46,006 bases of DNA from a virus. Its lineage: Duplodnaviria > Heunggongvirae > Uroviricota > Caudoviricetes. The translations under genes and the position numbers were made by a program. The DNA is taken from IMG/VR virus record IMGVR_UViG_3300028886_000029, positions 1-46,006 of that record. The stretch is one strand, 5' to 3'. The stretch's first letter is position 1. Each line of letters opens with the position of its first letter. The notes beneath the pieces are model-generated. The model ran no database searches. It saw only the letters and a list, made by a program, of their open reading frames with translations, and was not told where the DNA came from. Positions 4,087-11,951 of this stretch are shown here, piece after piece.

Positions 4087-4602
4087 TTAACTGGCGTAAG
4101 TTCCAAAGTAATTTTTAATAAAAACTATTGGTGTACCTTTCTGTCCTGAACCACTAACCAAATCGCAAAGTGACGCAATCAAATCCCTATATTGCCTTGG
4201 TGTGGTACCTTGTGATGTCATGTTTCCTACCAAATTATGGTTATTGTTTTCTTTAACCTCATTCCTAATGGCATCATCAAGTTCAGTACCATGTAACTCT
4301 TTATACTTATCATCGGCAAATGCCTTAATTTTAATCTCATTAGGTGTTGACTCAAATATTTCAGGGTCAGTATAAGCTGGCATTGTAATTGGGTCAGCAA
4401 ATTCATTGATGGAAGTACCTAAAATACCATTAATCATTGGACTATGGAAACAACCATCACCATATACACAAACAAGCACATTTTTTCCTGTAACAGTTTT
4501 AACCTTGTCCTTTATATCTTCACAAACTCTAACACAGTCCCTAATGTTGGGAAACAGTTTAATCTTGTCCTCAGTTGCTTTATTAGAACCTAAAACACCG
4601 TA
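4087..4602 (-). pseudogene. C-terminal fragment of a coenzyme F420-0:L-glutamate ligase-like protein
   Basis: Open frame YGVLGSNKATEDKIKLFP...VYGDG...ADP..PAYT...NLVGNMTSQGTTPR...SLCDLVSGSGQKGTPIVFI resembles the Firmicutes/Bacteroidota F420-ligase-like family. The N-terminal half is absent, and an in-frame TAG at 4612-4614 lies within the TnpB element end. Confidence 0.7.
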
Positions 4603-4753
4603 TATAGAAATCTAAGAAAAACTATGAACAATTCTTAGTTCCCATTTCTTGTTTCAACGAAACACTGCTTTTTAGTACCTCATTGCTGAGTCTGTCATCC
4701 ACAGTTGGTTTCTCCGCAAGCGTATATTCGGGAGTACGGCTCCCTATTATTCT
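4596..4753 (-). ncRNA. Putative omega-RNA scaffold of TnpB copy 1 (overlaps the tnpB 3' end)
   Basis: Established position of TnpB omega-RNAs; hairpin gggag-ccgta-ctccc; homologous orphan copy at 7358-7505. Confidence 0.7.
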
Positions 4754-5878: not shown

Positions 5879-6045
5879 TATCAAACAATGGGGTTTATAA
5901 CCCAATCCTTTTATAAATAGTTTATGTTTTGAAAAAATCTTGATTATTAAGACTTTTTCTTAGAATTTTATTTAACTGTTAATAACCCTGTAAGAGAAAA
6001 AATTGTTTAGAAGCCCCCAGATAATAAACTATTTTTTTTTTAAAA

Positions 6046-6439: not shown

Positions 6440-7216
6440 TTAATATATAAAAACTTCACCTTTTGCACTTCTTGGTGCTCTTGAACTAATTGAGCCACAT
6501 GGCGGATTTACATATGATTCAACAAAAGTAAATCTTGTTGGCTTTCCGCCATTGTTTTTGTATTTTTCACTATTTTTATGTAAATCAGTAAAATATTCCT
6601 GAGAGAAATCATTAAAAGTAGCATCAGAGCCAAATTCCATATCAATCTCTCCGTTTTTAGTTATATATTTTGGGTTTTCATTACCCTTTTTAAATAAAAA
6701 AGAATCTTGATTATATTTTTTTGACATTTCAATACCGAAATCATAAAGTTTATCTATTCCAAATACATTACCGTCAGTTGTTCTGTTATAGACCATAAAT
6801 GATTTCTCATAAACATTTTTTTCTGTCTCAGAACCAAGGTTTTCGATAAAACCACCATAAACCGGTGTATATGAAAGATGTTTTTTTCTTAGAATATTAA
6901 TAAAATCCTTCACTCTTTCGTTATTAATATGTTTGCTTTTTTCTTCAACATTGGGGTCATTAGGGTTAATACCTAATTCCTCAGGATTTGACCTACATGG
7001 ACTAATAACAATATAACCATTATCACTATGTCTTGCAAGCATCCTTTTGGCATTTGTTTCAGTTATTGGCACCAAATAAGAATTTTCTGAATAATGTGAA
7101 ACATTAATCCTTTCGTCAGAAGGAAATGACTTCCTGTTGTTTTCTTTTATTTCATTAAGCACAGTTTTTGTGCTTTCAAATATTATTGTTTTTAATTGAG
7201 ACTCAGTTATTTTCAT
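6440..7216 (-). CDS. Phage protein (DUF3293-like core), paralog of 16098-16775
   Basis: Shared IISxxxxP, G.F/Y..E.S.MVYN and KYNQD/ES motifs; N-terminal ITESQLKTIIFES leader. Confidence 0.75.
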   Translation of the reverse strand: MKITESQLKTIIFESTKTVLNEIKENNRKSFPSDERINVSHYSENSYLVPITETNAKRMLARHSDNGYIVISPCRSNPEELGINPNDPNVEEKSKHINNERVKDFINILRKKHLSYTPVYGGFIENLGSETEKNVYEKSFMVYNRTTDGNVFGIDKLYDFGIEMSKKYNQDSFLFKKGNENPKYITKNGEIDMEFGSDATFNDFSQEYFTDLHKNSEKYKNNGGKPTRFTFVESYVNPPCGSISSRAPRSAKGEVFIY

Positions 7217-7312: not shown

Positions 7313-7357
7313 ATGAAGCCATGATTTATAAGGAAAACCATGGCGAAAAACCATAAC

Positions 7358-7505
7358 CACCGTATAAAGAAACTTATAAAAACCTATAAGTTTCAATTTC
7401 TTGCTTCAACCTATCACTACTTTTTAGTGCCTCATTGCTGAGTCTGTCATCCATAGTTGGATAGTCCACAAGCGTAAATTCGGAAGTACGGCTTCCTATT
7501 ATTCT
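7358..7505 (-). ncRNA. Orphan omega-RNA-like copy of the tnpB1 3' end
   Basis: Aligns by eye with 4596-4753 (shared cctcattgctgagtctgtcatcc, TATACGGTG end) with no tnpB ORF; compensatory change gggag/ctccc to ggaag/cttcc. Confidence 0.75.
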
Positions 7506-7515
7506 TACCCCTTTG

Positions 7516-7605
7516 TGGAACCCATCGTATTAGGGAGTCGAACCCTGCTACTTGCATATTCGAAAACGCGCCCAAGGGGACCTTACTAACCGTTCAGGAT
7601 GTCTC
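7516..7605 (-). other. Atypical tRNA-like element
   Basis: T-arm aggg-TTCGACT-ccct present; acceptor and anticodon arms imperfect. Confidence 0.4.
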
Positions 7606-7650
7606 TTTTGTTAATATATAAATAAATGTAAAAAAAAAAACAAACTTTTT

Positions 7651-10877: not shown

Positions 10878-11285
10878 TAAAAAAATATCTAAAAAACTAC
10901 TTGATAGTACAAAAAAGATATTAACGGTTTAGCCACAACCATTTTTGTTTTGGCCAGTCCTCTACCTAACCGTGTAGGTTTTCCTTTCAACATCAAGAAT
11001 GGCTCATTCTATAGTGTGTTGGCTAAGGAAATATGCTAATCCCCAACAACTTCATTTTTCAAAAAACGGATGCATGTCAATCGTATTCCGTTATTCTGCG
11101 TTAACCTCACATGCCAAGGTCATATAGTCCACAACACACCCATATGACTAACTAGTATTTTCATTCTAAAAATTACTTAATAGAATATGAGCAGCCATTA
11201 TTATAATGGAACCAATAAAACAACTATTGAATTTCTGCTATTGTTTAGTTTCTAATTTTTCAACATTGTCAAATAACTTACATTG

Positions 11286-11324: not shown

Positions 11325-11951
11325 TACTTCGGCTGCGACTCGAACGCAGGACCAACTGCTTAGCTTACCACTATAACTTTCGTTACCAATATAAGACTAA
11401 AAATGACCTACAGCACAAGAGGATTGCAGTCATTCCGTAACATCCCTTTTATGTTCCTCTTATTTCGGGTCTTTATATTGTTTGTGGTCTGGACTATCCC
11501 TTAACCATATTGAAATCTTGCAAGATTGGATTAGGGTTTGTTCTTACCCCGAATAGCAGGTCGCTTTCCTGCACAGTTTGTTTTAATTTTAAAATCCAAA
11601 TTTCAACTTAGGTTTCTTCCGTCTAGTCTCTACACACTGTCTATTACAAATACTGAAATGTAGCTTAATTGCATATATTTGCCTTCTATGCAATAACGCC
11701 TTTTCATTACATTCCCAATTAACACCTTTTGCAAACGAGGTGAGTATTTGTTTTTAACATTGGTTCGGTATTAGCATATATTAACAGGACTCTTCACCTG
11801 TCCGACTCATATAGAGTGTCTGATTTGATTTTATACTTAGCTTTCACCGAATTTGGAAGTTTCTACATCTAAAATTTCTTTTAGTGCACTCCTAATTAAT
11901 TGATTATCAATTACTTAAAGGCAGTTGCTCTATCCACTGAGCTACCGAAGC
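11325..11951 (-). tRNA. trnR: tRNA-Arg(TCT) split by a group I intron (exons 11951-11918 and 11363-11325)
   Basis: Spliced arm actgc-ctt|ctaa-gcagt; acceptor GCTTCGG/CCGAAGT. Confidence 0.85.
11364..11917 (-). ncRNA. Group I intron (554 nt) after U34 of tRNA-Arg
   Basis: P/Q/R/S-like cores aattcggtgaaag, aataccgaaccaa, gtagagactag, aagggatagtcc; U.G in P1; ends ...GTGGTAAG. Confidence 0.85.

Follow-up and report, generated by a model that had tools for sequence, protein, structure and literature searches.

The guide of a TnpB nuclease is, by construction, the DNA adjoining the right end of its element. Stand-alone omega RNAs of OMEGA systems were reportedly described by Altae-Tran et al. in 2021, and polycistronic tRNA-gRNA arrays are said to have been engineered by Xie et al. 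in 2015. The described system closest to the locus reported here is that of the IS607-type TnpBs, whose guide RNAs (reRNAs) are RAGATH-18-derived RNAs (Ren et al. 2024, PMC11061315). TnpBs with these RNAs use G-rich transposon-adjacent motifs (TAMs), AGGAG or GAGGG, and the RuvC triad of solved TnpBs is held by GIDLG, ENL and HDRD stretches (PMC11061315). According to Meers et al. (PMC10055086), a gene-less derivative that carries an omega RNA needs TnpB supplied in trans by other elements.

We analysed the first 46 kb (46,006 nt, hereafter the window) of a 363-kb IMG/VR virus record, which is complete according to CheckV. The libraries containing the window sequence, both DNA and RNA, are bovine gut metagenomes. 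The genome has a G+C content of 33.5%, and ARAGORN finds 16 tRNA genes in the window, on the minus strand. On that strand, 148 nt at 7359‒7506, running from AAGAAT to ATACGGT, are a complete TnpB guide-RNA (reRNA/omega-RNA) scaffold with a RAGATH-18-type core and no gene attached (hereafter the orphan). The scaffold comprises five helices and a perfect 10-bp 3' hairpin.

The core helices of the orphan fit the RAGATH-18 model of the IS607-type reRNA, as known for the TnpB of ISFba1 (Ren et al. 2024, PMC11061315; PDB 8iaz; RF03064). As in the IS607 system, the gene-linked scaffold overlaps the 3' end of tnpB, the guide is the right-end flank, and the TAM is G-rich. The orphan differs from that system in having neither tnpB nor a left end, in residing in a megaphage instead of a bacterium, and in an inferred TAM of RGGGT, compared with the AGGAG or GAGGG published for RAGATH-18 TnpBs (PMC11061315). 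The Rfam RAGATH-18 model (RF03064) also matches 7398‒7472 over its full length, with 30.2 bits and E = 9e-4, below the gathering score of 44.9 bits; the phage scaffolds read as a subfamily divergent from the RF03064 seed. With PATE-like derivatives of IS200/IS605 elements (Meers et al. 2023, PMC10055086), the orphan shares the lack of a gene, the complete scaffold with its right end, dependence on a TnpB encoded elsewhere and the expectation of homing. PATEs, however, retain their two ends, so that TnpA can mobilise them, whereas the orphan has the right end only and thus lies outside the PATE definition. It resembles the tRNA-gRNA arrays in that a guide RNA gene lies within a unit of tRNA transcription and has the same orientation as the tRNA, but a real tRNA is found on one side only and the spacing yields no guide-length end. 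Stand-alone or PATE-borne omega RNAs are already described, and the orphan is an expected member of this class, not a new system. The present analysis adds the empty alleles, the TAM RGGGT, the IS607/RAGATH-18 assignment, and the gene-less copies across the family with their enrichment in tRNA arrays. The orphan is a clean natural guide-RNA-only TnpB derivative, polymorphic for presence and absence, of which the TAM, the guide and the empty target can all be read from sequence.

The initial annotation, made from the window alone, had noted about 150 nt matching the 3' end of tnpB1, a tnpB gene of the window, with the upstream coding sequence lost, and both points hold. The two copies form a direct repeat of 149 nt with 81% identity (7365‒7513 and 4613‒4761), and BLAST aligns the orphan with the tnpB1 3' end (4597‒4754) at 79% over 156 nt, finding no third copy and no further orphan tnpB tail in the 363-kb genome. 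Residues about 381‒423 of TnpB1 are the only part with a counterpart at the orphan, whose old frame still reads K-G-V-R-I-I-G; directly upstream, a cognate tnpB is absent and phage leader sequence is present instead. A covariance model was built from 31 relatives, with both window copies excluded. It matches the orphan with 140.6 bits at exactly 7359‒7506 over the whole model (positions 1‒153) and the tnpB1 scaffold with 144.8 bits, again from end to end of the model; there is no further match in the genome. Since the match covers the full model, the orphan is a complete member of the RNA family.

The family alignment contains 33 distinct copies from IMG/VR, with a consensus of six helices and 27 pairs. 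Across these copies, 97.1% of cells are paired, compared with 80.5% in column shuffles and 37‒60% in slid-partner controls. Changes on both sides occur at 17 of the 27 consensus pairs, covariation that supports the fold. Every consensus helix is retained in the orphan. Its first hairpin reads ggaag/cttcc where tnpB1 has gggag/ctccc; this paired G-C to A-U change, pointed out in the initial annotation, is real and is one among several. Four pairs differ in the third helix of the alignment (gaaac/gtttc in tnpB1, ctatc/gatag in the orphan) and one in the fourth (ctgt/gcag and ctat/gtag, respectively), giving at least six compensatory pair differences in total. The further suggestion of selection on RNA structure stands for the family as a whole; for the orphan copy itself, whose differences are inherited, the change does not show it.

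This inheritance is evident from the identities of the orphan to other scaffolds: 91% to L047, 89% to L195/L043 and 84‒86% to Lak-A1, compared with 79‒81% to tnpB1. Since the scaffolds of other phages are closer, the orphan is not a copy of the tnpB1 tail, and a duplication of that tail was rejected as its origin. The differences were inherited from two lineages whose scaffold was still joined to its gene. In the phage collection, Prevotella Lak megaphages alone showed similarity, at the 3' ends of their tnpB genes. Lak-B genomes yielded no empty site for the Lak-A1 element, as the homology stops 240 nt short of it.

Comparison with a sister contig (L173, in the same record as L230) reveals the allele without the insert. 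Its flanks are about 96% identical to those of the orphan, and the neighbouring gene has 98% protein identity. In the L173/L230 record, the upstream tRNA-like element, the leader hairpin and tRNA-Thr are all present, and precisely the 148-nt scaffold is missing; the empty leader of L173 reads ...CACAAAGGGGT and then directly GGTCATGGTTTTTCGCC... Similarly, a contig of DNA run X8, from an independent study, joins 7358 to 7507 and skips the 148 nt. Since both the sister contig and the independent run lack these 148 nt, the orphan is a discrete insertion/deletion polymorphism. Its limits at 7359‒7506 agree among the empty allele, the X8 contig and the covariance-model match, with a 3-nt ambiguity at the junctions, where GGT can be read at either one. 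The left end, as defined on tnpB1, L021, L097 and L049, is absent from the orphan, and the left flank is continuous with the empty allele. When metagenome contigs were searched with the left-flank 17-mer for a full-length occupant of the site, the one true hit, amid 64 chance matches, was the empty allele already known.

The insert is bounded by GGGGT on the left (7507‒7511, minus strand, directly 5' of the insert) and by its own terminal ACGGT on the right. The junctions of tnpB1 likewise have AGGGT or GGGGT, and in the empty alleles, for tnpB1 as for the orphan, GGGGT immediately precedes the flank. Since three junctions end in AGGGT or GGGGT, we take RGGGT to be the TAM and ACGGT the terminal motif of the element. 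As the initial annotation had stated, the sequence following the conserved end differs between the orphan and tnpB1, and each has its own distinct guide; the position given there for the element end is displaced, however, since the family alignment and the two empty sites put it one base earlier, after ACGGT. The guide therefore begins at 7358. Conservation stops there, and the sequence beyond is continuous with the empty allele. Because the scaffold and the exact transposon end are retained, the following 16‒20 nt of the tRNA-Thr leader, GGTTATGGTTTTTCGCCATG (7339‒7358, minus strand), would act as the putative guide. At guide position 4, the window has T and the empty allele of L173 has C.

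The element of tnpB1 occupies 4597‒5984 on the minus strand, with its left end from 5984, the ORF at 4622‒5905 (or about 4622‒5878) and its own scaffold at 4597‒4754; its ends were fixed by comparison with L173. TnpB1 contains the Pfam domains HTH_OrfB_IS605, OrfB_IS605 and a Cas12f1-like TNB domain, and aligns over its full length with the TnpB structures of ISDra2 (8bf8/8exa/8h1j) and ISFba1 (8iaz) at E of about 1e-51 (7e-51 for 8iaz). It keeps the GIDLG, ENL and HDRD motifs and is intact and apparently active. No other nuclease of the genome has a scaffold of this type. At the left junction, homology with L173 stops after ...CTCTTACAGGGT (5985), the flank ends in AGGGT (5985‒5989), and the left end begins with TATTAACAGTT. 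On the right, the tnpB1 guide GTTTTAGGTTCTAATAAAGC (4577‒4596, minus strand) continues a truncated CofE-like gene; in L173, the same sequence follows ...GATTGGGGT (GGGGT) within an intact CofE-like gene of 382 aa. Together, TnpB1 and a separate natural guide make a directly assayable pair for the service of orphan guides in trans.

The tnpB1 element stands in place of 1.78 kb of the sister sequence (window 4087‒5989, L173:4110‒5887). Gone with that sequence are tRNA-Ser(GCT), an ORF of 275 aa and the initial ~640 nt of the CofE-like gene (F420-0:gamma-glutamyl ligase family), of which a start-less 3' fragment of 174 codons remains at 4087‒4611 and supplies the tnpB1 guide; the N-terminal part is absent across the whole genome. 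The location of both breakpoints at RGGGT suggests an adjacent deletion mediated by the element or recombination between two copies. Neither tnpB1 nor the orphan has a serine-recombinase TnpA next to it, and no Y1 TnpA was found in the genome. Genes for an HTH plus a serine recombinase (resolvase) lie elsewhere, at 202597‒203247 and 349484‒350053 on the minus strand. The latter shares a few bases with the beginning of an ORF of 398 aa that weakly resembles TnpB (the pair spans 348298‒350053, minus strand), which is the IS607 tnpA-tnpB arrangement. On the minus strand at 5995‒6440, about 440 nt between the ORF at 6440‒7216 and the tnpB1 left end contain no ORF on the gene strand and many hairpins. 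This stretch matches nothing in Rfam and is conserved in the sister phage, whose locus has no tnpB1 element. An IStron, with a group I intron joined to tnpB1 and the orphan as an intron tail, was rejected: no Rfam intron is found in 5880‒6520, and the structured stretch is also present in the tnpB1-less locus of L173.

The orphan is best read as the right end alone of an IS607-type TnpB element, without a gene and inserted 3' of the GGGGT TAM in the tRNA-Thr leader. On this reading, to which we give a probability of roughly 55%, it would be a cargo-less homing element that may hitch-hike on TnpB1 in trans. The orphan would be transcribed together with the tRNA-Thr unit; its RNA would be trimmed at the 5' end by TnpB itself and at the 3' end by RNase P at the tRNA and by exonucleases. 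TnpB1, the only compatible nuclease in the genome, would bind this RNA in trans. The complex would then cleave the uninterrupted leader (GGGGT plus the guide sequence) in co-infecting sister phages, and recombinational repair would copy the insert into the cut allele. Use of the orphan scaffold by TnpB1 is assumed from the 80‒90% conservation of the scaffolds. RNase P at tRNA-Thr could set a distal 3' end, not one of guide length. For the 5' end, trimming by TnpB is the likelier route, as is reported for the TnpB of ISDra2, which processes its RNA there (PMC10278001). Two observations count against such use: the TTTG of the upstream -7 box is lost in the window (L173 has TATATTTG), and the proteins of the parent lineage of the orphan are only about 50% identical to TnpB1. 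In addition, the mismatch at guide position 4, which is proximal to the TAM, may block cleavage of the known empty allele.

Contigs from a metatranscriptome library match 7399‒7613 exactly, a hint of expression, although contigs of this kind do not resolve transcript ends, strand or carry-over of DNA; contig cover from the RNA runs is absent at 7342‒7375 and 7614‒7647. Upstream of the orphan lies a promoter-like stretch at 7612‒7650 on the minus strand (TTTG, about 20 nt, TATATAT), which resembles the repeat D7 found before other tRNA blocks. It was read by eye against the Bacteroidota promoter consensus and is a putative promoter. The D7 family (TTTG, about 20 nt, TATATATTTGCA) occurs on the minus strand at 11280‒11322, 14666‒14708, 17045‒17087, 26020‒26062 and 45543‒45585, where it reads like a Bacteroidota promoter and precedes tRNA blocks and genes; the stretch before the tRNA-like element and the orphan is a weaker form of it.

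The orphan might instead be an inert relic, a possibility that we rate below the homing element yet above every other alternative. Most of a full element would have been deleted, or the right end alone copied in an abortive homing or repair event, leaving neutral debris that is still undecayed, any RNA from it arising incidentally when tRNA-Thr is transcribed. Phages with flanks about 96% identical differ in whether they carry the insert, which is thus recent, with little time for decay; since the orphan is young relative to the sister phage, an intact fold is also expected of a neutral relic. The lack of a left end means that a transposase cannot move the orphan, and the impaired -7 box in the window also fits a relic. 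Whichever reading holds, two routes could have left a right-end-only piece exactly between TAM and target. A full element may have inserted at the TAM and then undergone deletion between the TAM and a TAM-like GAAGG, which lies just upstream of the scaffold and encodes a conserved Glu-Gly, or copying from an occupied allele may have been incomplete during repair of a TnpB cut (homing).

Evidence on the relic comes mainly from the other members of the family. Two pattern scans of IMG/VR gave about 58 scaffolds, nearly all on large-phage contigs, and about 14‒15 of them, roughly a quarter, lack tnpB (on huge-phage contigs). Of 14 gene-less copies, 12 are intact from the 5' AATAGG to the exact ACGGT end, first helix included, and no gene-less copy has a tnpB remnant longer than about 60 nt, neither of which favours decay. 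The gene-less copies also pair as well as the gene-linked ones (96.3% and 97.7%), and this holds for the two frame-broken copies, L175 and L034. On the other hand, degenerate relatives exist, L182 without both ends and L017 with a decayed 3' end. Poly-A tracts or the TAM-like GAAGG lie just 5' of the parent scaffolds and, if they act as hot spots of deletion, could explain the clustered 5' limits without selection. Random decay, however, does not predict the setting of the gene-less copies. Seven of 15 lie within 1 kb of tRNA genes, compared with 4‒5 of about 43 gene-linked copies (Fisher p = 0.004‒0.006), and all of the tRNA-proximal ones are on the tRNA strand (for example, at loci L017, L075, L175, L189, L191 and L207). 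Several gene-less copies have Bacteroidota-type promoter motifs immediately 5', as read by eye. That about a quarter of the scaffolds are gene-less, together with the enrichment in tRNA operons, suggests that such guides are kept and are not merely decaying. The enrichment across the family is the part most worth follow-up, and the gene-less pattern bears on how guide RNAs become separate genes, on the path from TnpB to Cas12 and on the spread of selfish elements between phages.

Two loci of the family (L049:440‒686 and L198:6975‒7220) are true PATE-like miniatures, in which either nothing or the final ~60 nt of tnpB lies between the left end and the scaffold. Their left end includes a promoter-like TTTTTGCAAAG stretch.

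The initial annotation had placed the orphan between tRNA-shaped units and proposed that RNase P and RNase Z define its ends. Downstream, this is correct as to the tRNA: tRNA-Thr(TGT) lies 46 nt from the scaffold on the same strand (7240‒7312, minus strand; called by ARAGORN, Rfam tRNA 64.4 bits), with a leader hairpin between it and the guide (7318‒7344, minus strand; -13 kcal/mol, z = -2.3) that is present in both alleles. The upstream unit is a conserved non-coding element (7516‒7608, minus strand) with one substitution relative to L173 and only T-arm-like and D-arm-like stretches. Neither ARAGORN, with relaxed settings and introns allowed, nor Rfam RF00005 calls a tRNA there in the window or the empty allele, and the element folds no better than shuffled sequence (z = +1.4). 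The only other copy in the genome or IMG/VR is that of the sister contig. The element is possibly a decayed type II tRNA; an insertion splitting a tRNA was rejected, as the empty allele also has no tRNA there. Since the upstream element fails these tests, definition of the 5' end by RNase P and RNase Z is unsupported, and tRNA-Thr, 46 nt away, does not give a 3' end of guide length.

A guide cassette punctuated by tRNAs and released by the two RNases is thus quite improbable, even though its outlines recur in the family. The gene-less scaffolds of L189, L175 and L191 sit 7, 40 and 64 nt behind tRNAs and 73‒87 nt before the next one, and gene-less copies are enriched in tRNA arrays. Gaps of 46‒87 nt downstream, however, yield no guide-length 3' end, and half of the gene-less copies lie away from tRNAs. 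G-rich TAMs, rare outside tRNA regions at 33.5% G+C, could also bias insertion towards such regions, while the excess over gene-linked copies is unexplained by this bias. In L189, 7 nt separate tRNA-Lys from the start of the copy, which also adjoins a fragment of a T-arm, and the 3' flank of the L175 copy resembles a tRNA-Tyr anticodon arm without its 5' half.

A broader conjecture is that huge phages keep gene-less guides preferentially in tRNA operons, where they would be co-transcribed and cut out with the tRNAs, one TnpB serving several of them in trans. We regard this as speculative and on balance unlikely, though with better prospects than the two-sided tRNA cassette. If this holds true, a single nuclease would naturally work with a number of guides encoded apart from it, as a gene drive or as a weapon among phages in co-infection, and the arrangement would resemble a step from transposon guides towards CRISPR-like arrays.

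The targets of the orphan guide bear on the last alternative, a domesticated trans guide by which TnpB1 would be aimed at a rival phage, at the host or, for regulation and not cutting, at the phage's own 241355‒241371. Beyond chance matches, the scans of bacterial genomes and viral contigs turned up the empty allele alone as a target with a TAM. Guide plus TAM gave 19 matches in 185,579 species genomes (one per bacterial species), in unrelated taxa, at about the chance number and with none extending; the five matches in viral contigs are in unrelated contexts and none has a TAM. An exact 17-nt copy, GTTATGGTTTTTCGCCA, is present at 241355‒241371 (L131:1501‒1517), in an intergenic region that is conserved in related phages (L142‒L144) and immediately precedes a terminator hairpin, and a second copy of a 17-mer in 363 kb has a chance expectation of about 4e-5. 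This site, however, has GGTTA at the TAM position, no RGGGT, and a mismatch at guide position 1. Moreover, the guide is the pre-existing leader of the empty allele, and since one of the 17 positions is C in that allele, the match may originally have spanned no more than 14 nt, for which the expectation is about 2e-3. The guides of three other gene-less copies gave self-matches only in their own records, which are 5‒70% complete. We therefore consider domestication the least probable of the explanations weighed here.

Returning to the tRNA array of the window, the repeats D10‒D12 and D16 are 50‒64 nt long, and the set is present three times, at 11347‒11891, 13576‒14105 and 14862‒15298. The large ORFs of the window are almost free of in-frame TAG, so the standard code was applied, and a recoding of TAG as in Lak phages was ruled out on the same grounds. 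In Lak-A1 (L001), on the other hand, the ORFs adjoining its tnpB require TAG to be read as an amino acid, one ORF of 449 aa containing 11 in-frame TAG codons. With TAG read as an amino acid in Lak-A1 and no sign that the 363-kb phage requires this, the TnpB family common to them spans different genetic codes.
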